A DNA stretch of 64,000 bases from an uncultured Gammaproteobacteria bacterium (GCA_963817615.1 CAWFPH010000003.1:30718-94717); one strand, 5' to 3'. Counted from the stretch's first letter, positions 12,424 through 44,589 are shown. A program made the numbers and translations. The notes: generated by a model not told the origin, from the sequence alone.

Positions 12424-13001
12424 GTGAAACGGAAGCGCGCCCGCTTAACCTATAATGCGTCCTCAGAGGTGCTGAGCGGCACCATCGGCGAAAAACACTT
12501 CCACGAAGTCGTGTACTCCGGCGGCGGGCGCGGCCACAAAGCCGAACCTCAGCGCGGACAAACGGGCGCGCTACTTGCACGATAGCCCACTGCAGGAATC
12601 TCTCGGCAGGCTCGCGACGACTCGCGAAGTCTACGACAAGAAGCGAGATGCCTATATTCAGCGCGGTGGCGCCATTCCGCCGGGGCACTATCGCTGCCGA
12701 GTACGTCGCCAATCACAAGGTTTTCAAGGAATGCATATTTTTGCGTCCCATGCGGGATGCGCATGCGATTTATTCGCCGTTTGCGAGCGTTCCGATCGTG
12801 CACCATCGCGGCGGATTCTTCATTCACGGCCATGGTCCGAAAGGCAGCGACGGGTGTTTGGTGCCGAGGGACGAATCTCGCCGCAAAGCGTTGAACTCAG
12901 CCGTCAAAGAGTTCGACGGAAATGTCGTGTTGGAGGTCACCCACGCCTCCTACATGCTGCCCGCAGAACGGGGGTTGGCGAGCGGCGGACGGTGGGCTTG
13001 A
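12424..13001 (+). pseudogene. Tlde1-like (DUF2778, L,D-transpeptidase-fold) protein, 2 frame changes
   Basis: Three frames joined. Frame 1: VKRKRARLTYNASSEVLSGTIGEKHFHEVVYSGGGRGHKAEPQRGQ. Frame 2 (change near 12570): LHDSPLQ...YIQRGGAIPPGHY. Frame 3 (change near 12690): IAAEYVANHKVFKECIFLRP...HHRGGFFIHGHGPKGSDGCLVP. The GPIPPGxY-like and HG...S-x-GC motifs are the DUF2778 hallmarks. Confidence 0.6.
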
Positions 13002-13226
13002 ACGCTGCGAAGGCGTGGCCGCGCAGGTCGGATCGCGCGCGGCTGCCGCACATCTAGTTCGTCCTGAGCCGACGCTCGAGCCATGTCGAGTGAACGCCGG
13101 AAGCCGCGTTCCTATTGACAATCACCGTCATTGAGTCAAGCTATGAAGCGCGCCTGGCGCCGCGGCGAGCGATAAACAAATAAAACGGATCACCAGCTCC
13201 GAGCGAGCCGGGACAATGGATAAGCG

Positions 13227-14278
13227 ATGCCCATGATCGACGTCGCGCGTTTCCTGCAGCCCACGGCGGCCGAACCGCCTTGCGGTCAGAACCTAGAGTA
13301 CGATCCCGCGTTCGGTGAGCTGGAGCGAGCCGCCGAAGGCAGGCCGGAGCAGGTGGAGGGCGATAAAGTCATCTCGAAGGCCGAGGATCCCGTATGGCGG
13401 GACGTATACGAGCGAGCCGAAGCGCTGCTCGATCGCACCCGCGACCTCCGCGTGGCCGTCCACCTCACGACTGCCGCAATGAACATCGAAGGCCTATCGG
13501 AGCTCGCCGACGGGGCTTCGCTTGATTACCGAGCTGCAGAAGAGTTTCTGGGATGACCTTCATCCCCGTCTCGACGAGGACGGCTCGGACCCTACCCTGC
13601 GGCTGAACAGCCTCTCTGATTTGGAATCGTTGCCGCCGCCGGGGACTAAGCACCGACCGACGTTGCTGCGCAGCCTCGACCGAATCGTTCTGGTACGGTC
13701 GAAACAGGCCGGCAGCTATACCTTCAGGGACATGAAGCTTGCGAAAGGCGAGGTGGCGCCCTCGGCATTGACAAGGAATCGTCCGCTCCGCAGCTTGCTC
13801 TGATCGAAGCCGCCTTTCACGACTGCGACCTCAAGGAGCTCGAGCAGACAGCCGCGGCTGCCGCACAGTGCGTGCGTACGGTCGCCGAGCTGCCGAGCTT
13901 TCTACGCGAGAAGGTCGGTCCCGAGCGCGCGCCCTGAGTTCGCGCAATTGCACAAGGAGCTCGACGGAATCGAGCGCGCGCTCGTCGAGCAACTCGCGCG
14001 CCGCGGCGTTGGGCGGACAACGGACGCGAGACGGTCCGATGCGGGCGCCGTAGCCGGCGCGAGCGGCGTCGGAGATACGGACGCGCGACGATGTCGTGCG
14101 GATTCTGGACCGGGTTTCCGACTATTTTCGGAAGTACGAGCCGTCCAGCCCCGTGCCGTTGTTGTTGCAAAGGGCGAAGCGGCTCGTGGCAAAGGACTTC
14201 ATGGAGATACTTCGGGACTTGACCCCCGCGGGCGTGTCGCAAGCGGAGGCGATTGGGGGCATCGAGAAGCAAAAGTGA
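13227..14278 (+). pseudogene. tssA: TssA (ImpA-family), about 4 frame changes
   Basis: ImpA N-domain (MPMIDVARFLQPTAAEPPCGQNLEYDPAF...). Continues in other frames (LITELQKSFWDDLHPRLDEDGSDPTLRLN; DKESSAPQLALIEAAFHDCDL; FAQLHKELDGIERALVEQL). C-terminus is ILDRVSDYFRKYEPSSPVPLLLQRAKRLVAKDF. Frame changes near 13515, 13770, 13935, 14075. Confidence 0.8.
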
Positions 14279-14334
14279 GCCGCAACCCGCGGCGCTCGTT
14301 TGATCGAAGAGCTTGAGAAGGCGGGAGGAACGTC

Positions 14335-14850
14335 ATGCCGAAGCAGAGTAGCCAAAAGTTCATTGCGAGGAATCGAGCGCCTCGCGTGCAGATCGAGTAC
14401 GACGTGGAGGTGTACGGGGCCGAAAAGAAGGTCCAGATTCCATTCATCATGGGAGTGCTCTCCGATCTTGCCGGTAAGCAGGAAGATCCCTTGCCGCCGA
14501 TCGAGCAGCGCAAGATGATGGAAATCGACATCGACAATTTCGACAGCCGCATGAAGGCCCTGAAGCCTAGGGTCGCCTTCGCCGTTCCGAACACATTGAC
14601 GGGCGAAGGGAATTTGAAAGTCGACATCACCTTCGAGAGCTTGGAGGACTTTTCGCCGGCTGCCGTAGCGCGCAAGGTCGCGGGACTCGACAAGCTTCTC
14701 GAGGCTCGAACGCAACTCGCGAATCTCGTGACGTTCATGGACGGCAAGGCCGGCGCCGAGCAGCTCATTACAAAGGCCCTGAAGGACGAAAGTCTGCTGC
14801 AGGCTCTGGCTTCCCAGAAGAAATCGGCAGACGAGCCGGCCGCGGAGTGA
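14335..14850 (+). CDS. tssB: TssB (VipA) small sheath subunit
   Basis: Intact 171-aa ORF. RVQIEYDVEVYGAEKKVQIPFIMGVLSDLAGK is the canonical TssB core. Confidence 0.95.
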   Translation: MPKQSSQKFIARNRAPRVQIEYDVEVYGAEKKVQIPFIMGVLSDLAGKQEDPLPPIEQRKMMEIDIDNFDSRMKALKPRVAFAVPNTLTGEGNLKVDITFESLEDFSPAAVARKVAGLDKLLEARTQLANLVTFMDGKAGAEQLITKALKDESLLQALASQKKSADEPAAE

Positions 14851-14855
14851 GATAG

Positions 14856-16353
14856 ATGGCAGAAGCAAAAACCGAAAAGGAAGGCGCGGCGCAGGCGCAA
14901 GAGTCGCTTGGGGCAGATGATTTCGCGCAGCTGCTAAAGAAGGAATTCCGCCCGAAGTCGGACCGCGCCCGCGAGCAGGTCGAAGCGGCCGTGCAAACCC
15001 TGGCTCAGCAAGTGCTGAGCGACCAGGATTTGATCCTCGACGACGCCGTCAACTCGATCAATGCGATCATCGCTGAAATCGATCTGAAGATGACGGAGCA
15101 GGTCAACCTGATCCTGCACCACCCGGAGTTCCAGCAGCTCGAGGGTGCCTGGCGCGGGCTGAGCTATCTCGTCAAGAACACCGAGACCGACGAGATGCTC
15201 AAGATCCGATTCATGCCCATTTCCAAAACGGAGCTGTCGAAGACACTCAAGAAGTTCAAGGGCGTTGCGTGGGATCAGAGCCCGCTGTTCAAGAAAGTTT
15301 ACGAGGAAGAGTACGGGCAGCTCGGCGGCTCACCGTTCGGCTGTCTCGTAGGCGACTATTCACTTCGACCATAGCCCGCCCGACGTCGAGATTCTTCAAG
15401 GGATGGCGCAGATCGCGGCCGCCGCGCATGCGCCGTTCATTGCCGGAGCGAGCCCGACCGTGATGCAGATGGACTCCTGGCAGGAGCTGACGAACCCGCG
15501 CGATCTGACGAAAATCTTCACGACGCCCGATTACGCGGCGTGGCGGTCGCTTCGCGAGTCCGAGGATTCGCGCTACATCGGTCTGGCCATGCCGCGGTTT
15601 TTGGCGCGGCTGCCCTATGGCGCGAAGACGGACCCCGTCGAAGAGTTCGATTTCGAGGAGGACATGCAGGGTTCCGACTCGAGCCGCTATGCTTGGGCGA
15701 ATTCTGCGTACGCGATGGCCGTGAACATCAACGCCGCATTCAAGCTGTACGGCTGGTGCTCGCGGATTCGCGGCGTCGAGTCGGGCGGCGCCGTCGAAGG
15801 ATTGCCCGTGCACACGTTTCCTTCGGACGACGGCGGCGTGGACATGAAGTGTCCGACCGAGATTGCGATCAGCGATCGTCGGGAAGCGGAGCTCGCGAAG
15901 AACGGGTTCATGCCGCTGATTCATCGAAAGAACACCGACATCGCGGCGTTCATCGGTGCTCAGTCGCTGCAAAAGCCCGCGCAGTACGAGGATCCCGACG
16001 CCACGGCCAACGCCGAATTGTCGGCGCGTCTGCCGTATCTGTTCGCGAGCTGCCGGTTCGCCCACTATTTGAAGTGCATCGTCCGCGACAAGATCGGCTC
16101 GTTCAAAGAGCGCGCAGACATGGAGAAGTATCTGAACGACTGGATTCTCCAGTACGTGGACGGTGATCCGGCAAACTCCACCGAGCAGGTCAAGGCGCGC
16201 AAGCCTCTGGCGGGAGCCGAGGTGACCGTCGAGGAGGTCGAAGGAAATCCAGGTTACTACACATCGAAGTTTTTCCTGCGGCCGCACTATCAGCTCGAAG
16301 GGCTGACAGTATCGTTGCGGCTCGTTTCGCGTCTGCCCTCGCAAAAGGGTTGA
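14856..16353 (+). pseudogene. tssC: TssC (VipB) large sheath subunit, 1 frame change
   Basis: ORFs 14856..15374 and 15403..16353 join into one TssC (ILHHPEFQQLEGAWRGLSYLV; MAQIAAAAHAPFIAGASP). The frame change near 15360 sits inside GDY-x-FDHSPPDVEIL. Confidence 0.9.
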
Positions 16354-16414
16354 CGGGATGAGCGGCGGCTAGGGACGGGAATTTTACATTTAAGAAGAAC
16401 GAGGAGAAGAAGCC

Positions 16415-16896
16415 ATGGCGGTCGACGCATTCTTGAAGATGGACGTGAAGGGCGAGTCGGTGGTGGATGGCCACGAAGACGAGATTCAGCTATTGTCGTG
16501 GTCGTGGGGCATGAGCCAGACCGGGACCACTCACCGCGGAACTCGGGCGGCGGCGCGGGCAAGGTGGACGTACAGGATCTCAGCTTCACACATCACGTCG
16601 ACGCCGCGTCGGCCAATTTGATGCTCGCGTGCTGTAATGGCAAACATTTTCCCGAGGTAAAGCTGACCGTGCGCAAAGCCGGTGAGAAGCCTCTGGATTA
16701 CCTCGTGATCGACGCTGACCGATATGCATCATCACGTCGGTTGCTCCGGGCGGCGCAAGCGGCGACGAGCTGATCACCGAGCACGTCACCTTGAATTTCG
16801 CGAAATTCAAGGTCTGCGTATCAACCGCAAGACAACAAAGGTGCGAAAACGGGCGGAGCCATCGAGGTCGAGTACGACATCGCGAAGAACAAGTAG
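16415..16896 (+). pseudogene. hcp: Hcp (TssD), about 4 frame changes
   Basis: Strong SD (AGGAGAAGAAGCC-ATG). MAVDAFLKMDVKGESVVDGHEDEIQLLSWSWGMSQTGTTH, then GGGAGKVDVQDLSFTHHVDAASANLMLACCNGKHFPEVKLTVRKAGEKPLDYLVI, then IITSVAPGGASGDELITEHVTLNFAKFKV, then YQPQDNKGAKTGGAIEVEYDIAKNK*. Changes near 16540, 16714, 16728, 16817. Confidence 0.85.
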
Positions 16897-16939
16897 CGCT
16901 CGCTGAGCGGTCCGCAATGACGGCCGACGGTCGGGGCCT

Positions 16940-17773
16940 ATGACCACGGACGCGCGCGAGCTACTGCGTCAAGGCGACGTGTCGGCGGCCCTCCAGTCGT
17001 TGCAAGCGCAAATCCGAGCCGAGCCGGCGAAGTCGGAGCACCGCGTTTTTCTTTTTCAGCTGCTCTGCGTGATCGGCGAGTGGGACCGGGCGCTGACACA
17101 GCTCGCTGTTGCGGGAGAGATGGATGCGGGCACGCTCGGGATGGTCCACGTCTATCGGTCGGCCGTGCTTGCCGAGGCGCTTCAGGCGGGAGGTTTTCGC
17201 CGGCCGGAAGACGCCGTTGATGTTCGGTGATCCCGAGGAATGGATCGCGCTGCTGCTCGAGTCGCTGAAGTTGACCGCGCTCAGCGAGATCGCGAAGGGC
17301 CAGGGGCTGCGCGAGCGAGCTTTCGAGCTCGCGCCTGCCGAGCGGCGGGCTCGTGAATGGGCGACCGTTCGAGTGGCTGGCCGATGCGGACGTCCGGCTC
17401 GGGCCGACGCTCGAAGCCATCATGAACGGCCGCTACTACTGGATTCCGTTCCATCGCATCGCAGAGTTGCGGATCGAGGAGCCCCAGGATCTCAGGGATC
17501 TCGTCTGGTTGCCGGCTCAGCTGAAGTGGACGAACGGCGGGCGAAGCCGTCGCGTTGCTGCCGACGCGCTACCCTGGTTCGGAGAGTCGGCGGATTTCGC
17601 GGATTCGTCTTGCGAGGCGCACGGAATGGGTGGACCAGGGGCAGGACGTCCATTTCGGTCTCGGTCAGCGGATCCTCGCGACCGACGTCGACGAAGTTCC
17701 GCTGATGGACGTGCGCACCGTAGTGTTTTCGGCGCCTCCTGCCGATCAGCCGAATCCCGGCGCGAATGGCTGA
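16940..17773 (+). pseudogene. tagJ: TagJ (ImpE-family T6SS accessory protein), at least 3 frame changes
   Basis: Four ORF pieces carry colinear ImpE-family sequence (REVFAGRKTPLMFGDPEEW; NGRPFEWLADADVRLGPTLEAIMNGRYYWIPF...PQDLRDLVWLPA; ALLPTRYPGSE...GLGQRILATD). Changes near 17195, 17348, 17540. Stop overlaps the tssE start. Confidence 0.8.
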
Positions 17774-18264
17774 GCTGACTCCACAGGAGCGGCTGCAGCC
17801 GTCGTTACTCGATCGTCTCACTGACCTCGAGCCCGACAAGAAGGTCGAGGCCCGAGACCGGCGGGTGCTCTCGGTCCGGCGTCTGCGGGAGAGCGTGCTG
17901 CGCGATCTTGCTTGGCTGCTCAACACCGGCCACCTCGAAACGGTGCAGTCGCTCGAAGCCTACCCCGCCGTCGCGGCGTCCGTCGTCAACTACGGCGTGC
18001 CGGATTTTTCCGGACTCGTCGCGGCGGCCATGGATTCTGCGCTGCTCGAGAAGTCCGTGCAGAAGGCCATCGTCGATTTCGAGCCGCGAATAGCACGCAA
18101 GTCTTTGCGAGTCACCGTGGTCGATTGCGAAAGAGTCGATGAGCCGCAACGCGATGACGTTCAAGATCGAAGGAGAGCTCTGGGCTGAGCCTACGCCGCT
18201 GGCGCTGTTTCTGAAGACGGAGCTCGATCTCGAGAGCGGTCACGTGACGGTTCGCGAGAGTTAG
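17766..18264 (+). pseudogene. tssE: TssE (gp25-like baseplate protein), 1 frame change
   Basis: QPSLLDRLTDLEP...LRESVLRDLAWLLNT core. After a change near 18135 the C-terminus reads [42 protein letters not shown]. Confidence 0.85.
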
Positions 18265-18274
18265 AGTCCCCCCC

Positions 18275-20156
18275 ATGGACCCCCGTCTCCTTCGCTACTA
18301 CAACCGAGAGCTGCAGCACATCAGCGAGATGGGCGCCGAGTTCGCGAAGGAGTTCCCGAAGATCGCCGGGCGCCTCGGCATGGAGAGCCTGCCGGTCGCG
18401 GACCCGTACGTCGAGCGTCTTCTCGAGGGCTTTGCGTTTCTCGCAGCACGCGTCCAGCTGAAGATCGACTCGGAGTTCCCGCGGTTCACGCAGAACTTGC
18501 TGGAGCTCGTCTATCCGCACTACCTGCCGCCTCTGCCGTCCATGGCGGTCGTGCAGTTTGCGCCGCTCTTGGAAGAAGGAGCCCTCGTCGACGGGTTCCT
18601 GCTGCCGCGCGAAACGAGCGTGCGAAGCAACATCGGGGGCGGCGACAAAACCGCGTGCGAGTTTCGAACGGGCCAGGACGTTAGGCTCTGGCCGATAGAG
18701 ATCACCGAGGCGAAGTACTTCGGCACGGCCGGCGCTTTGGCCACGATCGGAATCGATCGCCTCGACAAAGTTCGCGCGGGTATTCGACTGCGGCTAAGAA
18801 CGACCGGCAGCGTTGCGTTCGATCAGCTGCCGCTCGACGAGCTCATGTTCTACTTGAAAGGGACCGGCACGCCGCAGCTCGTAGCGCGCCTCTACGAGCA
18901 GCTGCTCGGCAACGCTCTCGGTTTCGTCGTTCGGCCGAAAGGTGGCGCCCAAGCCTGGCAAGACTATCACGAGGGCAGCGAGTCTGCGGGCCGTGGGGTT
19001 CGAGCGTTCGCAGGCGCTGCTCCCGCCGGTGCTACGGACCTTCGAAGGCTACCGATTCCTGCAGGAATATTTTGCGTTCCCCGGGCGATTCCTATTCGTG
19101 GAGTTCTGCGGTCTCAACAAATCGATTCGTAAATGCACGAGCACGGAGCTCGAGGTCGTCGTGCTTCTTGAACCGGCGCGACCCCGAGCTCGAAAACGTC
19201 GTCGACAGGGAGCACTTCGCGCTGAATTGCGCGCCGGTGGTGAACCTCTTTCCCAAACGAATGGACCGTATCCATCTCGGTCACGGTCAGCACGAGTATC
19301 ACGTCGTCGCGGATCGCACGCGACCGATGGACTTCGAAGTGTGGTCCGTCTCCGAGGTGCAAGGCTTTGGCGCCGGCGCTCAGCCCGAGAAGACGTTCTT
19401 CCCATTTTACGCTCATCACAATCGAAGCTCCTCGGCGGATACCGCGTTCTACAGCGTTCACCGCGAAGCGCGGCGGCCGTCGTCGGGACAGCGAGAACGC
19501 GGCGCCCGGTCGAGCTATTTGGGAAGCGAAACCTATATCTCGATCGTGGACCCGAATCACGCGCCGTATCAGTCGAGCTTGCGCCAGCTGGGCGTGCAGG
19601 GAATCTGCACGAATCGCGACCTGCCGTTGCATATGCCGCTCGGCCGTGGATCGACTGACTTCACGCTCGAAACCGGCGCGCCCGTGGAGTCCATTCGCTG
19701 CGTGGCGGGTCCGACGAAGCCGCGACCGTCGGCTGCCCAGGGCGAGACGACATGGCGGCTCATCAACCAACTGTCCCTCAATTACTTGTCCCTCGTCGAC
19801 GACGCGCCGGCGGCGGCGCGGATGCGATTCGCGCGCTGCTCGAGCTTTACGCCGATGCCAATGACCCCGTCACGCGGCGGCAGATCGAAGGCGTGAAGTC
19901 CGTGAGCTCGCGTCCGGTCAACCGGCGAATACCGACCAGCGGCCCGATTACCTTCGGTCGCGGAGTCGAGATCGGCGTGACTTGCGACGAGGCGGCTTTC
20001 GAGGGTGTCGGTGCGTTTCTATTCGGCACGGTGCTGAACCAGTTTTTTGCCAAATACGTTTCGATCAACTCATTCACCGAAACCGTGCTCACTTCCACCG
20101 AGCGCGGCGAGATCATGCGATGGCGGCCAACGTTGGGGCGAACGCAAATACTCTGA
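18275..20156 (+). pseudogene. tssF: TssF baseplate subunit, 3 frame changes
   Basis: MDPRLLRYYNRELQHISEMGAEFAKEFPKIAGRLG... is the canonical TssF start. Four colinear ORF pieces, with changes near 18940, 19172, 19805. Confidence 0.9.
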
Positions 20157-21145
20157 GCGTGCTCGCAGCGTTCGAGCGGGACGCGCACGAGCTCGACTTT
20201 TTCGCCGTGCTGCGTTTTCTCGAATGCCTGCATGCGGATGCGCCGCGTTTCGGGGCGGCGGCCCGACCCGTCGACGAGGCCGTGCGGATGGGCCAGGAGC
20301 CGAGTCTTGCATTCGCGCCGTCGACGCTGGCGAGCTTCACGGCGGGCGACACGGGCCGGCCGCACCGCCTCAGCACCTATTTTTTCGGTTTGTTCGGTCC
20401 GCAGGGTCCGTTGCCGTTGCACTTGACGGAATTCGCGAGGGAGCGCGAGCGCAACGCAGACGATCCGACATTTCGGGCGTTCGCCGACATGTTCCACCAT
20501 CGTTTGGCGCTGCTGTTCTACCGAGCCTGGGCCGACGCTGAACCGTGCACGAGTCTCGATCGGGCGGCGTCGAGACGTTTCGATGCGTACGTCGGCAGCA
20601 TGTTCGGAATCGGAACTCCGGACTTCAACGGCCGCGACAGCGTGCCGGACGACGCGAAGCGGCATCTCGCTGGCTTGTTCGCGATGAGCACCCGCCCGGT
20701 CGTTGCGCTCCGATCAGTCTTGGAAGAGTTCTTTCGTCTGCCGTTCGCGATCAGGGAATTCGTCGGAGAGTGGCTGCGAATTCCGGCGGACGATTGGTGC
20801 TTACTCGGTTCGTCCGCGGCGCGGCTCGGCGTCGACGCCGTCGTGGGACGTTCCGTCTGGACCTGCCAGCACAGGTTTCGAGTTCTCTGCGGCCCGTTGA
20901 GCTTCGACGACTTCACGGCGATGCTGCCCGGCAACCTCAGCCTGCGCAGATTGCGCGATCTCGTGCGCGACTTCATCGGCCACCAGCTCGAATGGGACGT
21001 CAATTTGATCCTGAGGGCGACAGACGTTCCACGGCTCGAGCTCGGCCAGTCGGGCGCGCTCGGTTGGACCACCTGGCTCGGCGAGCGGCGGACGAGCGCC
21101 GACGCGTACGACGTGATCATTCATCCGGCCATCGCGTTGGCTTGA
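20120..21145 (+). CDS. tssG: TssG baseplate subunit
   Basis: ORF 19982..21145 trimmed to ATG 20120 (MAANVGANANTL...FDFFAVLRFLEC...). Intact. Overlaps the tssF end by 37 nt. Confidence 0.9.
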   Translation: MAANVGANANTLSVLAAFERDAHELDFFAVLRFLECLHADAPRFGAAARPVDEAVRMGQEPSLAFAPSTLASFTAGDTGRPHRLSTYFFGLFGPQGPLPLHLTEFARERERNADDPTFRAFADMFHHRLALLFYRAWADAEPCTSLDRAASRRFDAYVGSMFGIGTPDFNGRDSVPDDAKRHLAGLFAMSTRPVVALRSVLEEFFRLPFAIREFVGEWLRIPADDWCLLGSSAARLGVDAVVGRSVWTCQHRFRVLCGPLSFDDFTAMLPGNLSLRRLRDLVRDFIGHQLEWDVNLILRATDVPRLELGQSGALGWTTWLGERRTSADAYDVIIHPAIALA

Positions 21146-21185
21146 CGCTCGGCGCGAAGCGGTTACCAAGAGAGGCGGCATAGTC

Positions 21186-23919
<2,734 letters not shown>

Positions 23920-25980: not shown

Positions 25981-25996
25981 TCGATCCCGAGCCCGG

Positions 25997-31068: not shown

Positions 31069-31070
31069 CG

Positions 31071-33736: not shown

Positions 33737-33755
33737 CTATACATCAGAAAAGACA

Positions 33756-33840
33756 GTGATTTCACGCTCGCCGATCGCAACCGTTCTGACTCAGCATATT
33801 GCTGATGCAGCCGTGCTGTGGCAGCAGCGAAATGTAACTA
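33756..33840 (+). pseudogene. short remnant of a TIGR02270-family N-terminus
   Basis: VISRSPIATVLTQHIADAAVLWQQRNV aligns with AGCPIPTVASQHAEESVILRNVRSV at the start of the full gene about 190 nt downstream. The similarity then ends. Confidence 0.45.
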
Positions 33841-33943
33841 CTGATAATGCGAATGAGGATCCACGAATCGAAGACGTCTGCCGAGCGCTTCGTTGTCCCA
33901 ACTTGCGCCTATCTCGTGCTCGAAACCTGGAATGTTGAGCCCA

Positions 33944-35212
33944 ATGCCCCATCCCACAGCAGGATGTCCGATTCCGACTGTAGCCTCTCAGCACGCCGAG
34001 GAATCGGTGATCTTGCGCAATGTCCGCTCGGTCCTGGTGAACTCCGCGCACGTGCGGCTGCTGCACCTCCTCCGGCTCGACAACCGACTTGCTGCTCATC
34101 TCGATGGATTGGCGGTGACAGCCGAGTTTGGCTGGAGCGTGTGCGAGGCTCAACTTGACGTCCCGAGTATCGGTTCGCTATTCGTGGCGACACAGCGCGC
34201 TATCCAAGATGCCGACTCTTCGAGGCTCGAACGATTCCTTCGACTTGGAGAGACGGTATCGGTGCTGGAGCCAGGCCTTGTTTCGGCTTTCGGCTGGACA
34301 TCCGCACAATTCCTACGCGGCACGGTCAAGGCCCTGCTTGAATCCTCTACTACTTTCCGTCGTCGCGTCGGCATTTCCGCGTGCGCCATGCACGCAGTCC
34401 ACCCCGGTGCCCCTCTTGACGCAGCTCTGCGAGACCCTGACACTGCCCTACGTGCGCGCGCACTGCGCGCAATCGGCGAGCTCGGTAGGCTGGATTTGAG
34501 CACCGCCGTGCGGCGCGCAGTCGATGACCCCGACGAGACCTGCCGCTATTGGGCCGCGCGGTCCGCTGTTTTGCTCGGTGACCGCGGCAAAGGGCTCAAC
34601 CTGTTAATCGGCGGGTGTCGAGCACCGGGACCGTGTCGCGAGAGTTCGCTTCACCTTGCGCTACGTGCGATGGAGTTGCCTGCCGCGCGCGAGTTACTGC
34701 GCCTCATCAGCAGCGAGCCGAAAGACGTACGAGCACTCATCGAGGCCGCAGGCATCGTCGGCGATCCGCACTACGTGCCCTGGCTCATCAAGCAGATGGG
34801 CGACCCGAAGCTCAGCCGCCTCGCCGGCGAATCGTTTTCGCTCATCACTGGGCTCGATCTGGCGTATCTAGATCTCGATCGCCGCCCCCCCGAGGGCGAA
34901 GAGCTCGGACCGACGGCGGATCCAGACGACGAGAACGTCGCAATGGACCCGGATGAAGGGCTGCCGTTGCCCGACCCCGAAAAACTCGCCAAATGGTGGG
35001 AGGCGAACCGGCACGCATTCGCCGTCGGCACACGCTACTTCATGGGCCGGCCGCTCAGTCGGGAACACTGCCTGCAAGTGCTCAAAGAGGGTTTCCAGCG
35101 CCAGCGCGCTGCGGCCGCGCTCTATCTATCGTTGCTGCAACCGGGAACGCCGTTGTTCAACTGGCGCGCGCCGGCGTGGCGGCAGCAACGCTGGCTTGCG
35201 AGTATGCGTTGA
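33944..35212 (+). CDS. TIGR02270-family (HEAT-like repeat) protein, PA0101-like position
   Basis: ORF 33893..35212. The start is probably ATG 33944 (MPHPTAGCPIPTVASQHAEE...). LDNRLAAHLDGLAV and repeated D-P-D-x-x-x-R...A motifs are typical of this family. Intact. Confidence 0.7.
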   Translation: MPHPTAGCPIPTVASQHAEESVILRNVRSVLVNSAHVRLLHLLRLDNRLAAHLDGLAVTAEFGWSVCEAQLDVPSIGSLFVATQRAIQDADSSRLERFLRLGETVSVLEPGLVSAFGWTSAQFLRGTVKALLESSTTFRRRVGISACAMHAVHPGAPLDAALRDPDTALRARALRAIGELGRLDLSTAVRRAVDDPDETCRYWAARSAVLLGDRGKGLNLLIGGCRAPGPCRESSLHLALRAMELPAARELLRLISSEPKDVRALIEAAGIVGDPHYVPWLIKQMGDPKLSRLAGESFSLITGLDLAYLDLDRRPPEGEELGPTADPDDENVAMDPDEGLPLPDPEKLAKWWEANRHAFAVGTRYFMGRPLSREHCLQVLKEGFQRQRAAAALYLSLLQPGTPLFNWRAPAWRQQRWLASMR

Positions 35213-35328
35213 CTGGTGACGACGCTCGTGGGCCATCGACCTAGGTTTCGCACCGGCCAACCGTTACCCTTGCAGCCGATGTTGGCAACAGCGAGTCGCT
35301 CATTCGGATTGATCGTTGCGAGGCAAAC

Positions 35329-35518
35329 GTGCTGACAGCGCCGGCCGTCCCCGTCGTCTTCGTCGCCATCGCGGTGATCTTCGTGACCCTCGCGCTGCGC
35401 GATTTTCTCAAAGGCGAGTCGAAGCTGAGCCCCGCACGCAGCGCCTGGCTGCGCGTTGCGACGATTTTCGCCGTGATCGCGATTGCGCTCGTTCATCGTG
35501 AACACGTTCATGAGTTAA
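35329..35518 (+). CDS. small two-TM membrane protein (3' end uncertain)
   Basis: GTG start with GAGG 5 nt upstream. MLTAPAVPVVFVAIAVIFVTLAL...AWLRVATIFAVIAIALV gives two hydrophobic helices. This frame has no stop until 36279, but coding signal moves to the 35537 frame. The end given assumes a frame slip to TAA at 35516-35518. Confidence 0.3.
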
Positions 35519-35536
35519 CGGATCCGAGAGGCGAAG

Positions 35537-36279
35537 ATGGGTGGAAAGACACCTGGCCCGGTCGGCCAAACCGACAAGGCGCAAGACATCGACGATGGCA
35601 CGCTGGCGCGCACGAGCACGCCGAAGCCGGGTCCCAACAATGGGGCAGCGGGGCAAACCGCCGCCACGGACCACGCGCTGTCCGTGCCGCTCGACGTCTA
35701 TCTGATCAATCTCCAGATCGTCGCCGAGGAGATCGAGAGCTACGAGGTCTCGGTCGGGAAGGAGAAACGGACGCAGCGAAGGAAGGTTCGCAAGGTCGTC
35801 GAGACGGTGAAGAGCGGTCAAACCGAAGAGACGATCAATGCTTCGATCGCCCGTGCCAACGAGATCTGGAAACAGGCCGGTATCGCATTTCGACTACATC
35901 AACTCGTGCCGAAAGACGTCGAGTTCGACACGAAGACGGTGAGCGAGGAGGGTTTTCTGTCGCTGGTTGCCAGCTTGAAGCTGCCGGCCTGCCGGGACTC
36001 AGCATGATGTTCGTGCGGAATTTCGAGAGCCCGCATCTCGGCGGCCAGGCCGTGGACTCGCTCGGCGCGGGAATCGTGACCTATTTGGGGAATCCGACGC
36101 AGGGCAACACCCTGGCTCACGAGCTTGGCCATCTGCTTGGGCTGCCCGACCTGAAGCACGTCGCAAACTCGATCAAGAACCGCTACAACTTGATGTACGA
36201 GGCCAGCGCGGCGGGGTACGAGATCACGGCCGACCAGGCGAAGACCGCAGTGGAGAGAGCCAAGCTAAAGCAGAATTAG
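35537..36279 (+). pseudogene. zinc metallopeptidase-like protein with HExxHxxGxxD (snapalysin-type) motif, 1 frame change
   Basis: ATG with a GAGAGG SD and an in-frame TAA just upstream. MGGKTPGPVGQTDK... has no signal peptide. After a change near 35990 it reads MMFVRNFESPHLGGQAV...GNTLAHELGHLLGLPDLKH...*. Confidence 0.55.
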
Positions 36280-36380
36280 CGGGTCGACGGAGGCACGAAC
36301 GGCAGAACCGAACTCGGCGTAGCGATAGATTGTCGCGTAGAAACACATAGTTGGCAACTTGATCTCATGCAGTTTCCGCC

Positions 36381-36409
36381 TCGCCAATCGATACAGATCC
36401 CGCTAGTAT
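36381..36409 (+). promoter_or_regulatory. weak sigma70-type promoter candidate upstream of fha
   Basis: TCGCCA, 17-nt spacer, TAGTAT. About 37 nt upstream of ATG 36446. Confidence 0.25.
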
Positions 36410-36445
36410 CACGAACTTGCCGCTAATTGCTCCGGGGAGCCATGA

Positions 36446-37798
36446 ATGCCGCTCGTGTTGCGAGTCTTGAGTTCGCAGAACCACACGACGGCTTTCGACG
36501 GCGCGAAGACCTTCGAGACGGACGGGACCATCGGCCGGACGGTCGACAACGATTGGGTGCTGCCCGATCCTGAACGTTTCATCTCGAGCCGCCACGCGGC
36601 GATCAGTTATGAAGGCGGGCGCTACTTCATCAACGATCGCAGCACGAACGGCATTGGCCGTCAACGGCCGCGAGATGGAGAAGGGCGGCCGTCTCGAGCT
36701 CAAGATCGGGCGACCACATGACCATCGGCGGCTATCAGATTGCCGTCTCGGTCGAGGGTCCGGTTGCGCCGGGGCCGATCGGCGCTGCATTCGCCTCGGC
36801 TCCTCCGCCGGCCTCGATCGACGACATTTTTTCGGACCCCAACCCTTTCGCGGCTACTCGCGAGGCGCCAATGCCTCGATCCGCTGGTGGCGCTCGGCGG
36901 CGCGGAAGGGCCGCGTCCCAGTGCCGCGCCGGCGCCGCGTACGGTGGACGATCATCCCGCGCGGAGTCGGAGTTCTTCGAGCCGCCGCGCATGATCAAAG
37001 CGCCGCCACCGGCCAGGCGGCCGGCAGAGATTCCGGAGGACTGGGACTCAACGGGCTTCTCGGCGGCCGCGGCCGGCTGCGCCCTCGGGCGCGCCGACCG
37101 AACCTCCCGCTCCGCCGCCCCCGCACGGCGCTTCGACGCCTCCCCCTGCGGACTGGGCCGCCGAGCAAACTCCGTCGCCGCCGCCGGCGAGAACGATGGC
37201 CTCCCCGGCACAGCCGGTCGATGTCTCGGGCTTGCTGCGGGCTGCGGGCATCGATCCCGCCGCGGCCGATCCAGCGCTAGTAGCGTCTCTCGGCGAGGTG
37301 CTGCGAGTCGTCGTCGAGGGCTTGATGGGCGTGCTCAAGGCGCGTGCGGAGATCAAGAATCAGTTCCGGGTTGCGATGACGACGCTGAAGCCGCTCGACA
37401 ACAACCCACTGAAGTTCTCCGTGGACGCAAACGACGCTCTGTTCAATTTGTTCGGAAGAAAAACAGCTAGTTTTCAGTCACCTGTAGATGCTTTCAGAGA
37501 TGCGTTCGAAGATCTAAAGGCGCATCAAATGGCAATGATGGCGGGTATGCGGGCGGCATTCACGGAGCTGATGGGGCGGTTCGATCCCGATCAGTTGCAG
37601 GAGGCTTTCGACCGCGGAATGAAGCGCGCTGCGATCCTCGATGTCATCAACCGGACGAAGTATTGGGACCTCTATCGAGAGATGTACAAATCGCTCGGCG
37701 ACGACGATTCGAGCTTCAGACGGCTGTTCGGCGACGAGTTCGCTCAGGCGTACGAGGAGCAGATGCAGCGTCTTACGGCGCTGCGCAGAAGGCGGTAA
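36446..37798 (+). pseudogene. tagH: Fha/TagH FHA-domain T6SS scaffold protein, 3-5 frame changes
   Basis: FHA core GTIGRTVDNDWVLPDPERFISSRHAAISYEGGRYFINDRSTNG, then AVNGREMEKGGRLELKIG, then HMTIGGYQIAVS, a Pro-rich linker with IPEDWD, and an intact C-domain (ORF 37196..37798). Changes near 36655, 36712, about 37065, and perhaps 36870 and 36960. Confidence 0.8.
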
Positions 37799-37862
37799 AT
37801 GGCCTATCATCTCCGCAACAAACAGAATAACTAGACGTTCAGCCGCCCCGCGGGGAGATGCA

Positions 37863-38361
37863 ATGAAGCCCGCTCGCATTCACAAGCCGTGGCTTCGTCG
37901 TGGTGCTCGTAGCCTGCGCGTTCGCGCCTATCGGCGCGCATGCCAAGGAGACGAAGCTCGTGAGCCAGGTCGTGGCCGCGGCCAAGATCAACCCGAACCT
38001 TCACGGCACGCCGCAGCCGGTCAAGCTCCACATCTACTATCTGGCCAAATCCGACGCGTTCATGCAGGCCAATTTCGGCGATCTGATCGCGCCGAAGGCG
38101 CCGGTGCTCGGTCCGGATCTAATCCGGCAAACTGAGACGCTCATCGGCCCCGGCGAGATGGCCGCGCTCGACGACAAGTTCGATGCGGCTGCACAGTTCA
38201 TCGGGGTCGTGGCCGAGTTCACCGACATCGACAACGCTTCCTGGAGAGCGGTCGCGGCCGTGCCCGCCAAGAAGTGGTCGGATGTGGTAAAGCTCTTCAG
38301 TCACAAGAAACTTCTGATCTCGGTCGACGGCACGTCCGTGACTTGTGAGATCGAGCATTGA
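37863..38361 (+). pseudogene. tssJ: TssJ outer-membrane lipoprotein, 1 frame change in the signal peptide
   Basis: ORF 37900..38361 carries the TssJ body (VKLHIYYLAKSDAFMQANF...). A proper lipoprotein signal (MKPARIHKP-x-GFVVVLVAC, lipobox LVAC) needs ATG 37863 plus a frame change near 37888. Confidence 0.7.
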
Positions 38362-38382
38362 GTCCTTCACAAAGGCTGGTCG

Positions 38383-39717
38383 ATGTCCTGGAAGAACAAA
38401 GTCTTATGGTTCGAAGGTCTGTTTCTGCGCCCGCATCATTTTCAGCAGCACGACCGCTATCTCGAGGATTACGTGGAAGGCCGGTGTCGCGGCCTGCGCA
38501 ACCACGGCTGGGGGTTTACGGAGCTGACGCTCGATCAGGATCTGCTCGCGATCGGTAAAGTGGCCGTCGCCAGCGCGGCGGGCGTGTTTCCGGACGGTAC
38601 GCCTTTCAACATACCGGACGACGACCGCCCCCCGGTTGCGCTCGACCTCGACACGTCCGTGAGGGAGTGCCGTGTGCATCTCGCGTTGCCCGCGCGGCGG
38701 TTGGGCGAGCGCGAGGTCGAAGGCGGGGATCAACGGGAAGGATTGGCGCGTTACGTGCCGCGGGAATTCGAGACGCAAGATACGAGCGGCGATCTGCAAA
38801 GCGTCGCGCAAATGCGGGTCGGCACGTTGCGCACGCGGTTGTTGCTCGACACCGATCAGCGCGAGGAGTACGCGTGCCTCGGCGTCGCGCAGGTCGTCGA
38901 GGTGAAAGCGGACCGTAGCGTCTCGCTGCGCAAGGACTACATACCGCCGGTGCTCGATTGCCAGGTTTCGCCCGTGTTGGCCGGCTTCATCGCGGAGTTG
39001 AGCGGCCTGCTGCACCATCGTGGTGAAGCGCTTGCCGGCCGGGTTACCGCGTCCGGGCGCGGCGGCGCCGCGGAGATCGCCGAGTTCTTGTTCCTCCAGG
39101 CCGTGAATCGGTACGAGCCGACCGCGGCTCACCTCGCCGGGCTGACCGGGTTACACCCTGAGGAGCTCTATCGAGCTCTGATCGAGATCGCCGGAGAGCT
39201 CGCTACGTTCACGCACGCTGCGAAGCGGCCGCCGCAGTTTGCCACGTACCGGCACGACGACCTACGCGCGACGTTCGAGCCCGTGATGGCCTCGCTGCGG
39301 GAGTCGCTCGGCGCGGTCATCGAGCAAATGGCGATCCGGATTCCGCTCAAAGAGCCGCGCTACGGCATTCGGGCCGCACCGCTCGCCGATCGGTCGTTGC
39401 TCGGCTCAGCGAGCTTCGTGCTCGCGGTTCGCGCCGACGTTCCGACTGAGGAGCTGCGAGCACATTTCCCGGCGCAGACGAAGATCGGGGCGGTCGAAAA
39501 AATCCGCGATCTCGTGATGTCGCAGCTTCCGGGAGTCGCGATTCGACCGTTGCCGGTCGCACCGCGGCAGATTCCTTACCATGCCGATTTCGTCTATTTC
39601 GAGCTCGATCGCTCGAGCGAATACTGGCCGAACATGCAGGACTCGGGGGGCTTCGCGATTCACGTCGGCGGCGAGATTCACGGCCTCGACATGCAATTCT
39701 GGGCAATCCGCAAGTAA
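38383..39717 (+). CDS. tssK: TssK baseplate subunit
   Basis: Intact 444 aa. MSWKNKVLWFEGLFLRPHHFQQHDRYLE is the canonical TssK N-terminus. Confidence 0.95.
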   Translation: MSWKNKVLWFEGLFLRPHHFQQHDRYLEDYVEGRCRGLRNHGWGFTELTLDQDLLAIGKVAVASAAGVFPDGTPFNIPDDDRPPVALDLDTSVRECRVHLALPARRLGEREVEGGDQREGLARYVPREFETQDTSGDLQSVAQMRVGTLRTRLLLDTDQREEYACLGVAQVVEVKADRSVSLRKDYIPPVLDCQVSPVLAGFIAELSGLLHHRGEALAGRVTASGRGGAAEIAEFLFLQAVNRYEPTAAHLAGLTGLHPEELYRALIEIAGELATFTHAAKRPPQFATYRHDDLRATFEPVMASLRESLGAVIEQMAIRIPLKEPRYGIRAAPLADRSLLGSASFVLAVRADVPTEELRAHFPAQTKIGAVEKIRDLVMSQLPGVAIRPLPVAPRQIPYHADFVYFELDRSSEYWPNMQDSGGFAIHVGGEIHGLDMQFWAIRK

Positions 39718-39719
39718 CG

Positions 39720-41026
39720 ATGACGGACGATCCTTTTTCCAGCGGCGAAGATCGAACGGTGTTGCGGCCGACGCCCGGCGGCAGGCGTCGAGAGGCTGCC
39801 GCGGCTCACGCCGCTGCTGCGGCGCCGGTGCGCTCGACACACGGCACGGCGCTACAGCGCATGGACGGATCGGACGTCAACCCGCTGACCGGTGCCGCTG
39901 CGCCGTTGCTCGCGCTGGCCGGTCAGCTGCGCAACACGATGAGCCATCCGGACCCCGAGGGCCTGTTTCGCCACGTCGCGCAGGAGATGAAGAACTTCGA
40001 GGCGGCGGCGGCGAAGCGCCGGAGTGCCGTCCGAGGCGGTGCTTGCGGCGCGTTACGCGTTGTGCACGCTGATCGACGAGGTCGTTCTCAATACGCCGTG
40101 GGGCAGCCAAAGTGCCTGGGCGAGCCAAACGTTGCTGAATCTATTCCACCGCGAAGGGTGGGGGGGAGAGAAGTTCTTCCAGATGGTCGATCGCGTGATG
40201 CAGCAGCCGGCCAGCCAACCTCGCGCTGCTGGAGCTGTTCTATCTCTGCATGGCCATGGGGCTCGAAGGCAAGTACCGCGTCGTGGCGGGCGGGCGGTCG
40301 ACACCTCGATACGCTGCAGACGAACGTCGCGCAGGCCATTCGGACGCAGCGCGGGGAATTCGAGAGAGAGCTCTCGCCGCATTGGCGGGGCGTGCAGGAT
40401 GCTCGCCCGAAGTTCGCGGAATACGTTCCGCTATGGACGGTTGCGGCGGCCGGCGTCGGCGTGCTGGTGTTGGTCTATTTCGCGTTTCTGTTCTTCTTGA
40501 ATCAGCGATCGGACCCCGTTACGCTCAGGTGGCCGCGCTCGGCCGCGAGGTGCCGCCGCTCGTGCAACGGCAAGGGTACGTCCAGCCACAAGCGCGCGCG
40601 GCTGCGCGATTGCTTGCGCCGCAGGCGAGGCAGGGCGCGCTCGAAGTGCAAGACCGCGGCGATACGGAGACCGTCATCCTGCGCGAAGGCCTGTTTCCGT
40701 CCGGCAGCGGCGAAGTGGACTCTGCGAAACTTCCGGTGCTCGAGGCCGTCGGCAATGCTTTGAACCGCCTGCCGGGTCAAGTCCTGATCACGGGCCATAC
40801 GGACAACATCCCGATCCGGAGTCTATTGTTCCCATCGAACTGGGCGCTTTCGAAACGACGCGCAGAGGCGGTGCGCGACATTCTCGCGCGATTCGTTCCG
40901 CCGCAGCGTCTGTCGGCGGAGCCGCGAGCCGACAGCGAGCCTCTGGTCGCGAACGACACGCCCGAGCATCGAGCGCTGAATCGTCGCGTCGAAATCACGT
41001 TGTTCTCGCTGCCGACGAGGGAGTGA
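39720..41026 (+). pseudogene. tssL: TssL (DotU) with C-terminal OmpA/MotB-like peptidoglycan-binding domain, about 4 frame changes
   Basis: DotU core (AARYALCTLIDEVVLNTPWGSQSAWASQTLLNLFH; LLELFYLCMAMGLEGKYR), TM helix (VPLWTVAAAGVGVLVLVYFAFLFF), and OmpA-like end (ITGHTDNIPI...NWALSKRRAEAVRDIL...NRRVEI). Changes near 40020, 40215, 40290, 40525. Confidence 0.85.
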
Positions 41027-41030
41027 AGAC

Positions 41031-44000
41031 ATGTTGAAGCTGCTCAAGAACCCTTGGCTGGTCAGGATTCCGGCCATGGTCGCTCGTGAGCGTGCTGATC
41101 TACGTGCTCGGTCCGTTGTTCGCGTTCGGACGCTATCGGCCGCTCGAGAGCGTCGAGGCACGCTACTTCGCGATCTTGATGGTCCTCGTTATTTGGCTCG
41201 TCCGTTTCGTGCTGAAGGCGCAACGTGCGGCGAACGCCGACAAGAAAATGGCGAACGCCATGGTCGCCGCGCCGATCACGCCTTTGCCGGCGGCCCCGGA
41301 CATGTCGGCGGAGGAGTTGAAGACGATTCGGGATCGCTTCGAGGAAGCGCTCGGTATCTTGAAGAAGTCTCGAGGCCGCAAAGGGCCGGCTCAGCCTTTA
41401 CGACTTCCTTGGTACATGATCATTGGCCCGCCGGGCTCTGGAAAAACCACCGCGCTCTTGAATTCCGGCTTGCGCTTTCCTCTCGCCGACCGGTTCGGCC
41501 CGGAAGCAATCCGCGGCGTCGGCGGCACGCGAAATTGCGATTGGTGGTTTACCGACGATGCGATCTTGATCGATACGGCGGGCCGATACACCACCCAGGA
41601 CAGCGATGCAAAGATCGATCAGGCGGGCTGGCTGGGGTTTCTCGATCTACTGAAGAAGCATCGCCGCCGCCGACCGATCAACGGGATTTTCGTCGCGATC
41701 TCCGTCGCCGATTTGCTAACGCAGTCCGAGCAGGAGCGTCGTGCGCAGGTGCTCGCCATCAAAGAGCGCGTCATGGAGCTCGACAAGCATTTCGGCATAC
41801 GCTTCCCCATCTACGTTTGTTCACGAAGTGCGATCTCGTCGCGGGCTTCACGGAGTTCTTCGAGGATCTTGGGCGAGGCGATCGAGAGCAGGTCTGGGGC
41901 GTCACGTTTCCGTACTCGGACGATGCGTCGGCGAGCCCCGCCGGCCAGTTCGGCGCGGAGTTCGATCGGCTGATTCGCCGTCTCAACGAGCGGCTGATCA
42001 GCCGTATCAGCCAAGAGCGCGACGTGCGCCGCCGCGGGCTGATTCACGGCTTCCCGAAGCAAATGTCGAGTCTGAGGGACGGCTTCACGTCGTTCGTCGG
42101 CGAGGTCTTCCAAAGCAGCCGCTACGAAACGAGCCCGCTGCTGCGCGGCGTCTATTTCACGAGTGGAACGCAGGAGGGTACGCCGATCGACCGGCTGATG
42201 AGCGTGCTCGCCAAGACGTTTCGCATCGATGCGCAGGCGTTGCCGCCGCAAACCGCGGCAGGCAAGAGCTTCTTCATCGCGGACGTGCTTCGGAAGATTG
42301 CGTTCGCCGAAGCGGGTCTGGCCGGAACGAATCGTCGCTTCGAGCTGCAACGCGCTTGGTTGCAGAAGGGGGCGTACGTCGGCGTGATGCGGGCTCGTTG
42401 CGTTGGCCGCCACTGCTTGGGTGTTCGCCTATTTCCACAATCGCGCGCTTCGTCGAGCGGGTCGGGGCGCAAGCGCGCCAGGCCCGCGAAGCGATCTCCG
42501 CAATCGACAATCGCGACTACGATCCGCTGTCGGTGCTTGCCGGCTCTGGACGCGGTTCGGCAGTTGCCGGGCGGCTATGCTGATCGTGAGCGCGGCGGCT
42601 CCTGGTTCGGCGATTTCGGCCTCTCGCAGCAGGACAAGATCGGCGACGCCGCCGTCGCTACTTACCGGCGGCTGCTCAATCAGTTGTTCCTCTCGAGAAT
42701 CATGCTGCGGTTGGAGGATCAGCTGCAGCGCGGCGGACCTACGCCCGACTACACTTACGAGGCGCTCAAGGCCTACCTAATGCTCGACTCACGTGAGCAC
42801 TACGATGCGGACGCGATCAAGGCGTTCGTGCAGCTCGACTGGGACACGAATCTGCAGCGCCAGGTGAGCACCGAGCAACGTCAGGCGCTTGCGGCGCATC
42901 TGAAAGCCACGTTCGAAGAACGGCCGTTGCCGTTGCCGTTGCCGCTCGATGATGCGGTGGTCGCGCAGGCGCGCCGCGACGTTCGGGCCATTCCACTCGA
43001 GGATCGGATCTACGGACGGTTGCGCCGCACGTTCCAGGGCGACGTCCCGGGCTTCAACATTCGCGACGCGGCGGGCGGCGCTACCGCCGAACTCGTCTTC
43101 GTCCGGAAGAGCGGTGCACCGCTCGCTCAAGCGCTCCCGCCGCTGTTCACCAAACAGGCGTATCAGCAGGTATTCGTCGCGAAGAGTCGCGAATTGACTT
43201 CGGAGCTTGCCGGTGAGTCGTGGATACTCGGCGACCAGCAGACCATCGATGCCGCCGAGCAGGAGCGCCTGCTCGCGCGCGTGCGCGAGCGGTATTTGGA
43301 CGAGTTCGCTCGTCTTTATAGCGACGCGATTCTCGACGTCGGCCTGGCGCCGTTCAACACGCCCGAGGAGGCTGCACGCATCTTCAATATCCTGTCGCGG
43401 CCGGAGGACTCGCCGCTCCTGTTGTTGCTGCAGGAGATCTCGCGGCAGACGTCGCTGGACAAGGTCGACGACAAGGGCGGGTTGGCTGCTCAGGTCGGCG
43501 GCAAGGTGACCCAGTTGCAGGAGCAGCTGAAGCAGGTGATCGGCGCGGCCGGTCAGGCACCGCAATCCCTGACCGACGCGCTCGTCCGCAACGGCGTCGA
43601 GCAGCGTTTCCGAGCGCTGAATGCGCTCGTGCAACCCGCCGCCGACGGCAAGCCGCGGCCGGTGGACCACTTGCTCGACCTGATGCGGCAGCTCTACCAA
43701 TACATGAGCGTTGTCGCGAGCGAGGCGGCCGGTGGTGCGATTCCGCCGCAGGTCCAGCAGCAAGGTCAGGCCGTGCTGCAACAGTTTCGCGCGGAGGCGC
43801 CGGCTCAGCCCAATATGCTCGTGGGCGATTTGCTGCAAACGGCCGCGGCCCGAACGGCCGCGCTCACGACCGGAGGATTGCGCGCTTACCTGAACGACCT
43901 TTGGCAGTCCGGGCCGCTCCAAGTGTGCCGCCAGGCAATCGCCAATCGATACCCGATCGTCCGCGGCTCGGAGCAGACCATCCGTCTCGACGACTTCGGC

Positions 44001-44589
44001 GCGTTCTTCGGCTACGGCGGCCAGATGGACCGGTTCTTCAACGAGCATTTGCGCCAGTACGTCGACGCAACGAGCCTCGCCGTGGCGCACGCGGCAGACC
44101 GGCAACGTGCCGATCCAGCTCTCGCAAGCGGCGCTGCGGGCGTTCGAGAACGCCGACGTCATCAAACAGACGTTCTTCCGGCCGGGCAGCATGATGCCGT
44201 CCGTTTCCTTCGACCTGCGGCCGCTCGAAATGGACCCGGGTCTCAGCCGGTTCCTACTGTCGCTCGAAGGCAAGGTGGTGGTCTACGAATTCGGACCGCG
44301 GACCTCGACGCTGATGCAGTGGCCCGGTCCCGAGCCGGGCACCGAGGTGCGGCTCGAGTTCCGTGACCGGCAGAACGGTCAGACCGCGATGGAGCGCGTC
44401 CAAGGACCCTGGGCGTGGTTCAGAGTGCTCGACAAGTCGCATCTCGCGCCGACCAACGTCCCCGAGCAATTCCAGGTCTCGTTCTCATCTGGCTCGCGCT
44501 CGGCTCAATACGAGCTCATCGCACGCAGCGCCTTCAATCCTTTCGCCCTGACGCAGCTGCAACAGTTCGAGTGCCCCGGTTCTCTCTGA
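41031..44589 (+). pseudogene. tssM: TssM (IcmF), about 6 frame changes
   Basis: ATG 41031 with a GGGAG SD. TM helices, Walker A GPPGSGKTTALLNSG, DTAGRY, and a long IcmF periplasmic domain ending FECPGSL*. Changes near 41082, 41818, 42385, 42445, 42540, 44075. Confidence 0.9.

Follow-up and report, generated by a model that had tools for sequence, protein, structure and literature searches.

The analysed window is a stretch of 64,000 nucleotides (nt) from an uncultured Gammaproteobacteria bacterium (GCA_963817615.1, CAWFPH010000003.1:30718-94717) with a GC content of about 65%. It contains a type VI secretion system (T6SS) gene cluster located in an island (about 12.4–51 kb) with a GC content of 0.58–0.66, compared with 0.67–0.73 in the flanks. 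According to Pfam analysis, the intact open reading frames (ORFs) encode TssK, DotU, IcmF, VgrG/Gp5, a PAAR-like GHH2 toxin and TagF-PP2C, as well as a Ser/Thr kinase, a Sel1-caspase protein and an autotransporter; pyrroloquinoline quinone (PQQ) dehydrogenases are encoded in the left flank. The core T6SS genes are present together with hcp, vgrG, clpV and a PAAR-type tip. Many genes of the cluster are interrupted by changes of the reading frame. In total, 68 such changes were counted between 12.4 and 44.1 kb, in agreement with the roughly 70 changes of +/-1 estimated in the initial annotation of the window.

The breaks were located using tblastn and a purpose-written script for frameshift-aware alignment of proteins to DNA. 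The references included three annotated T6SS clusters from isolate plasmids (L083–L085), 80 genome loci around tssC, and a syntenic relative, L001, whose TssK is 78% identical to that of the window. Scanning of genome contigs with a TssC fragment gave only relatives at 80–85% identity, owing to the strong conservation of TssC, and these served as references and not as close relatives. In addition, three intact contigs from JGI short-read metagenomes were used, namely, L086 (30.5 kb, spanning the whole left half; clpV identity 85%), L089 (clpV identity 87–88%) and L090 (6.9 kb, 82.5% nucleotide identity to positions 15051–21946). The frame-corrected alignments to L083–L085, L086 and L001 cover tssA, tssB, tssC, hcp, tssE, tssF, tssG, tssH, tssJ, tssK, tssL, tssM and vgrG. 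The blocks, genes and events are as follows.

12400–30900, both strands and intergenic DNA: first struck block, 51 single-base frame changes
12445–12998, plus strand: Tlde1-like effector gene, two +1 events (~12571, ~12705), by three-frame reading
13227–14275, plus strand: tssA, four events (13510, 13765, 13931, 14060)
14335–14850, plus strand: tssB, intact, exact protein in the public record
14856–16353, plus strand: tssC, one +1 event at 15363
16415–16893, plus strand: hcp, four events (16544, an extra CG; 16711; 16726; 16815)
16949–17770, plus strand: tagJ (ImpE), three +1 events (17181, 17339, 17539)
17766–18261, plus strand: tssE, one +1 event at 18122
18275–20153, plus strand: tssF, three events (18983, +1; 19165, +1; 19802, -1)
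20120–21145, plus strand: tssG, intact
21151: intergenic event, by nucleotide alignment
21186–23919, plus strand: clpV/tssH, ten +1 events (21639, 21733, 21808, 22100, 22314, ~22809, 22941, 23608, 23723, 23751), corrected protein of 907 aa
24069–25529, minus strand: VipA-VipB fusion gene, about ten events, eight of them +1, by the single reference L086 at 47% identity
26131–28359, plus strand: vgrG, six events (26172; 26384, -1; 26634; ~26715; 27235; 28320)
28442–28875, plus strand: DUF6484 gene, two +1 events (28533, 28731)
28919–29962, plus strand: DUF2169 gene, three +1 events (~29030, 29742, ~29885)
30037–31050, plus strand: ketoacyl synthase (KAS)-like gene, two events (30210, +1; 30480, +2)
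30900–35900: clean block, no frame changes
31659–32831: PAAR-like GHH2 nuclease toxin gene, intact
32828–33736: 302-aa ORF, intact
33893–35212: HEAT-repeat gene, intact
35900–44100: second struck block, 17 events, with a clean stretch inside at 37.87–40.0 kb that includes tssK
35537–36279, plus strand: HExxH metallopeptidase gene, one event (-1/+2) at ~35987
36446–37798, plus strand: fha/tagH, about five events (36653, 36701, 36918, 36976, 37068)
37863–38361, plus strand: tssJ lipoprotein gene, one +1 event directly 3' of the ATG (~37866), by three-frame reading
38383–39717, plus strand: tssK, intact, identical to the public protein P0001
39720–41026, plus strand: tssL (DotU-OmpA), four events (40001, 40215 and 40300, all +1; 40520, -1)
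41031–44589, plus strand: tssM, six events (41085, +1; 41817, -1; 42387, +1; 42460, +1; 42536, +1; 44076, +1)
44100–56400: clean block tiled over its whole length by full-length ORFs, with tagF-PP2C, ppkA, the Sel1-caspase gene, the autotransporter gene, a 1036-aa cadherin-like gene, a DUF922 gene and pgl
56442–58255, plus strand: edd (6-phosphogluconate dehydratase), two +1 events (56622, 57568), outside the T6SS cluster

The breaks in the Tlde1-like, peptidase and tssJ genes come from reading in three frames combined with weak Pfam matches of the joined proteins; the joined Tlde1-like protein matches Tlde1_dom below the cut-off (25.2 bits), and the alignment of the L001 TssJ to the window starts at residue 20. 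The Pfam identity of the VipA-VipB fusion was obtained on its L086 orthologue, and the L086 orthologue of the KAS-like gene gives a weak match to ketoacyl-synt. The positions in fha/tagH are less certain because of a low-complexity linker. Nearly all per-gene counts of the initial annotation were reproduced, with about five events in fha (three to five had been given) and about ten in the sheath-like gene, for which at least six had been reported; the DUF2169 gene has three events and not four.

The break positions were identical whichever reference was aligned, and the pieces on both sides of the breaks are colinear with the homologues, the same protein resuming at once after each slip. The plot of GC content at third codon positions (GC3) by frame shows that the preferred frame flips every few hundred bases in the 12.4–31 kb region and is steady across whole genes in the flanks. 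Some of the events escape ORF finding. Within 150 nt of tssM, three +1 events (42387, 42460 and 42536) return the frame inside an 1111-aa ORF (41031–44366), and the transmembrane helix GLVALAATAWVFAYF is readable only in the alternate frame. Three +1 events in clpV likewise restore the frame within a 383-aa ORF (21186–22337). Painting of frames by the best tblastn match to stop-to-stop ORFs of high-GC relatives assigned false antisense and off-frame readings and was replaced by the alignment script.

The deposited NCBI/ENA record carries the broken fragments verbatim, all on one contig of 2,030,089 bp. These include the 383-aa ClpV with scrambled internal frames, both halves of TssC, a 285-aa N-terminal part of TssF and a 140-aa TssE; intact TssB, TagF and PQQ dehydrogenase, as well as the TssK protein P0001, are encoded by the same public contig. 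It follows that the frame changes are part of the assembly as deposited and are real features of its sequence.

The distribution of the events along the window is discontinuous. No events were found in 1–12.4 kb, 30.9–35.9 kb and 44.1–56.4 kb (0 per kb in each), whereas 12.4–30.9 kb contains 51 events (2.76 per kb) and 35.9–44.1 kb contains 17 events (2.07 per kb). The initial annotation had given 0 changes for 1–12.4 kb, about 50 for 12.4–31.1 kb, 0 for 31.66–35.2 kb, about 17 for 35.5–44.6 kb and 0 for 44.6–51.8 kb, and these figures held with slightly shifted borders. The zero counts in the flanks are based on tiling by full-length ORFs, coding-like GC3 and complete coverage of Pfam domains, and not on homologue alignment of every gene. 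Within 12.4–30.9 kb the counts per 500-nt bin have a variance-to-mean ratio of 1.06, which corresponds to a homogeneous Poisson process. At the density of this block, the probability of observing no events is 1e-15 for 1–12.4 kb, 1e-6 for 30.9–35.9 kb and 2e-15 for 44.1–56.4 kb, so that the steps are indeed too sharp for uniform error. The result is a two-state pattern of “dirty” and clean blocks, the edges of which do not correspond to gene borders. The density step reported at the tssM/tagF boundary does exist, but it does not coincide with this boundary; the last event (44076) lies approximately 0.5 kb inside tssM.

Clustering of the breaks in the T6SS structural genes, as previously stated, is correct as a description. 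However, tssB, tssG and tssK are spared, and the non-structural Tlde1-like, peptidase and KAS-like genes are struck. The events occur on both strands, including the minus-strand vipAB gene, and in intergenic DNA, and are indifferent to gene identity. Event density also shows no relation to protein conservation: there are no events in tssK (78% identity to L001), tssB (85% to L086) and tssG (62%), one in tssC (87%), ten in clpV (85%) and about ten in vipAB (47%). The lack of such a relation speaks against reads of related species having simply been cross-mapped. GC content was considered as a driver of event density and rejected, as the clean block at 31.7–35.2 kb has the lowest GC content. The density steps fit an alternation of clean and unpolished or poorly supported stretches and not a T6SS-specific process. 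The lengths of the dirty blocks, about 18.5 and 8–9 kb, are reminiscent of polishing chunk sizes.

One extra nucleotide accounts for 57 of the 68 events, and the remaining 11 are of the -1/+2 type (p = 1e-8 against equal shares). The comparison with the orthologous locus in relatives, which had been proposed as a check, was carried out at the nucleotide level with two to three of the intact short-read contigs (L086, L089 and L090), and each break corresponded to an extra base found only in the window, with colinear surroundings; at 21639, for example, ten bases on either side are identical to L090. Removal of 22 bases and addition of one makes the tssC-clpV alignments uninterrupted against all three short-read relatives. 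Run lengths at 28 well-placed sites match the background (19 of length 1, seven of length 2 and two of length 3), and the inserted base is the same as a neighbour at nine of the 28 sites. One break of those placed by the initial annotation in short homopolymers, at 41818 in a T-run, was recovered as the event at 41817, which adjoins TTT. No 4-mer was enriched at the sites (best p = 0.035 among 95 tested). Methylation or other sequence motifs, including GCGC and CGCG, were likewise examined and discarded, since no enrichment was found. The insertions dominate and are not concentrated in homopolymers, which differs from systematic error of the nanopore, 454 or Ion type, and the sites carry no conserved slippery or homopolymeric motif of the kind associated with programmed frameshifting or slippage.

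The frame-corrected genes show no sign of relaxed selection. No in-frame stops were found in corrected tssC-clpV, and all genes are colinear with and full-length relative to those of L086, in line with the earlier statement that nonsense codons and large deletions are absent. The corrected ClpV has no stop and can be aligned with JGI proteins from end to end, with 87% identity. Among 120 homologues, it differs at one of 358 otherwise invariant columns (V for L) and at three columns conserved at 95% or more, all conservatively, a count no different from the median for intact homologues. In a relative-rate test with L086 as the outgroup, the window had 52 private amino acid changes and L090 had 88 (p = 0.003). 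This test drew on 2,246 codons from seven genes (partial tssC, hcp, tagJ, tssE, tssF, tssG and the first 253 codons of clpV), a stretch that contains 15 of the events, and its result runs opposite to decay. Unequal branch lengths may lie behind the significantly lower number of private changes in the window, or else L090 may contain errors or mixed strains.

Taken together, these data make it very probable that the frame changes stem from errors of consensus building or polishing that affected an assembly of the long-read type in patches, and not from gene decay. The frame changes would be consensus errors, mostly single extra bases with a few missing ones, left in stretches with a weakly supported consensus or without proper polishing, beside clean stretches. 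The initial annotation had argued against long-term pseudogene decay and left a choice between local indel (insertion or deletion) error and very recent inactivation. The first point holds. In the second, the balance is shifted firmly towards error by the 57:11 excess of context-free insertions, their Poisson-uniform spread inside the dirty blocks whatever the gene or strand, the lack of stops and of excess substitution, and the same defect in edd and once in a relative assembled in the same style. Genuine and very recent inactivation, in which the T6SS was switched off and then acquired dozens of real single-base indels, appears improbable, although the breaks are present in the deposited sequence, cluster in an island of lower GC content that was acquired by horizontal transfer and can be dispensed with in many settings, and spare toxin, immunity and regulatory genes possibly under selection. 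The first frameshift kills a gene, and ten hits in clpV would need a long period of neutral evolution, yet there are neither nonsense codons nor large deletions, and no excess of amino acid change is seen in the relative-rate test or in ClpV. With the usual substitution-to-indel ratio of about 10:1, well over 100 extra substitutions would be predicted in tssC-clpV, and the 15 events of the relative-rate stretch, if real and neutral, should be accompanied by more than 100 extra substitutions and several stops. Spontaneous indels in bacteria are deletion-biased and homopolymer-linked, and the excess of insertions outside homopolymers opposes this known deletional bias. In addition, tssB, tssG and tssK are spared, as is the PAAR toxin gene, which is useless without a T6SS, whereas the housekeeping gene edd, which had already been noted as hit and lies outside the island, carries the same defect twice. 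Pseudogene fields of Mycobacterium leprae, Shigella and Burkholderia mallei resemble the window in that many adjacent genes are frameshifted, but they show nonsense codons, deletions, insertion sequences and raised non-synonymous change, none of which occurs here. If the insertions were nevertheless real, they would require a recent burst of context-free insertions in kb-scale tracts by a localized mutagenic process, or recoding, with no accompanying substitutions, and we consider this still less credible than recent inactivation; it would imply a mutational or recoding process not yet known, and the evidence is strongly against it. Biological recoding in the strict sense, with real extra bases bypassed by programmed +1 frameshifting, transcriptional slippage or editing, can practically be dismissed. 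Nearly all events are +1 and the protein resumes at once after each, as in prfB frameshifting and the poly-A slippage of endosymbionts, but the sites share no motif, slippery sequence, homopolymer, 0-frame stop or rare codon, number in the tens, include 11 of opposite sign and are partly intergenic, and neighbouring genes and flanks have none. To our knowledge, no bacterial system tolerates ten such sites in one gene.

Consensus error is favoured by the independence of the indels from gene, strand and function, as illustrated by the intergenic event at 21151, the minus-strand vipAB gene and the two events in edd. A set of events that is dominated by insertions, free of context, locally uniform and able to reach ten hits per gene without substitutions does not match any known natural mutational history, and these four properties match stochastic consensus error in poorly supported or unpolished stretches. 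Residual indels in long-read assemblies (PacBio continuous long read (CLR) or Nanopore) are reportedly a cause of truncated protein predictions, as Watson and Warr are said to have described in 2019. The syntenic relative L001 (ena:ERZ25039495 contig_24064, 5.45 Mb), the closest of the relatives on large contigs and named in its record in the manner of Flye metagenome contigs, has a +1 event of its own in tssL at ~11986, with tssM, fha and tssK unbroken, and its public gene calls around tssL consist of a spurious antisense ORF and a fragment with OmpA only. Nanopore-only soil genomes polished by a single Medaka round are a documented source of residual indels (PMC12313526). The window shares with long-read assembly errors the breakage of ORFs by single-base indels with the underlying protein sequence perfectly conserved, the involvement of unrelated genes, the location on a large public contig and a defective relative in the same assembly style; it differs in that its events are dominated by insertions, are not linked to homopolymers and are confined to kb-scale blocks. 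We infer the technical cause, for which the candidates would be locally insufficient reads, omission of blocks during polishing, the filling of gaps between accurate short-read contigs with long reads, and interference of co-occurring strains. One special form of the artefact, in which collapsed haplotypes led to both alleles of wobble single-nucleotide polymorphisms being written in tandem, would also account for the blocks and is a possible though rather unlikely source of the insertions. For its analysis, the extra base could not be placed clearly enough on protein alignments, and nucleotide-level placement was workable only with at least two close relatives. Under these conditions, none of 15 insertions fell unambiguously at codon slot 2 or slots 1–2, compared with 24% of 2,773 random insertions simulated through the same pipeline, and 10 of 15 were at slot 1 and/or slot 3 (43.5% expected); moreover, the inserted bases at 15–24 kb tend to lie beside a codon third position and are mostly unlike the base there (e.g., gcg[C]gag and gc[A]ggg). 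This signal is weak (p of about 0.02 for 0 of 15, after several looks at the data) and was regarded as suggestive and not adopted. With single references the events at 14060 and 44074 resolve to slot 2, GC-rich third and first positions could give the same bias via sequence context, and by our reasoning it is not obvious why a standard consensus by pileup or partial-order alignment should write out both alleles. Two points weigh against consensus error in general. Nanopore consensus typically errs towards deletions and in homopolymers, unlike the events in the window, the insertion profile of which would rather resemble stochastic insertion noise of the PacBio CLR type. In the searched collections, neither independent sequence of the same species nor an intact allele of the exact organism was seen, the best matches having 87–96% amino acid identity (ClpV 87%, TssF 89%).

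The organism most likely has a complete and functional T6SS cluster. Its real locus would be an intact T6SS of the type regulated by Fha, PpkA and TagF-PP2C, and would carry a module of VgrG, DUF6484, DUF2169 and PAAR-like GHH2 toxin genes. Among the closest known systems are T6SS clusters of the TssA-M type under threonine-phosphorylation control (Fha, PpkA, TagF-PP2C), such as those of the syntenic relatives L086 and L001; the corrected window shares gene content and order with L086 in the left part (tssA-B-C-hcp-tagJ-tssE-F-G-clpV, followed by vipAB on the minus strand and vgrG-DUF6484-DUF2169-KAS-like-PAAR/GHH2) and with L001 in the right part (fha-tssJ-K-L-M-tagF/PP2C-ppkA-Sel1/caspase-autotransporter). 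The differences are an effector cassette of L086 between clpV and antisense vipAB, which is absent from the window, and the Tlde1-like gene, which precedes tssA in the window.

The consequences for users of the public genome are practical. Its automatic annotation shows a T6SS shattered into dozens of fragments, and surveys that count pseudogenes, T6SS presence or protein families from the deposited genome would be misled, whereas 68 single-base corrections give an ordinary, complete T6SS. The two-state pattern, with about 2–3 context-free insertions per kb in blocks beside error-free blocks and with no substitution signal, could flag unpolished stretches in other assemblies without the use of reads.

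The vipA-vipB gene is a second, divergent sheath-like gene, located in antisense orientation between clpV and vgrG, and its product is one VipA-VipB (TssB-TssC) fusion protein. The fusion gene is unbroken in the short-read relative L086 (15190–16623, 477 aa); because of this, the fusion is regarded as conserved and not as an artefact of the assembly of the window. The conserved module 3' of tssM (44591–51383) encodes the TagF-PP2C fusion, PpkA, a Sel1-repeat caspase (Peptidase_C14) and an autotransporter beta-domain protein, and the same order is found in L001 (16214–21332). Genes of the caspase family also adjoin the T6SS clusters of Azospirillum (L084) and Pseudoroseomonas (L085).

Some observations were made outside the T6SS cluster. 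The eda gene (58297–58908), 3' of edd, is intact. A DUF3300 gene near 62.9 kb on the minus strand is split across two frames (ORFs 62173–63225 and 61746–62897), with Pfam profile positions 10–120 in one ORF and 126–199 in the other. In the left part of the window, two minus-strand ORFs (5422–5024 and 5023–4019) have coding-like GC3 and share the same frame with a single stop codon between them; the region 4019–5422 may contain either a single gene interrupted by an in-frame stop or two genes that lie 15 nt apart.

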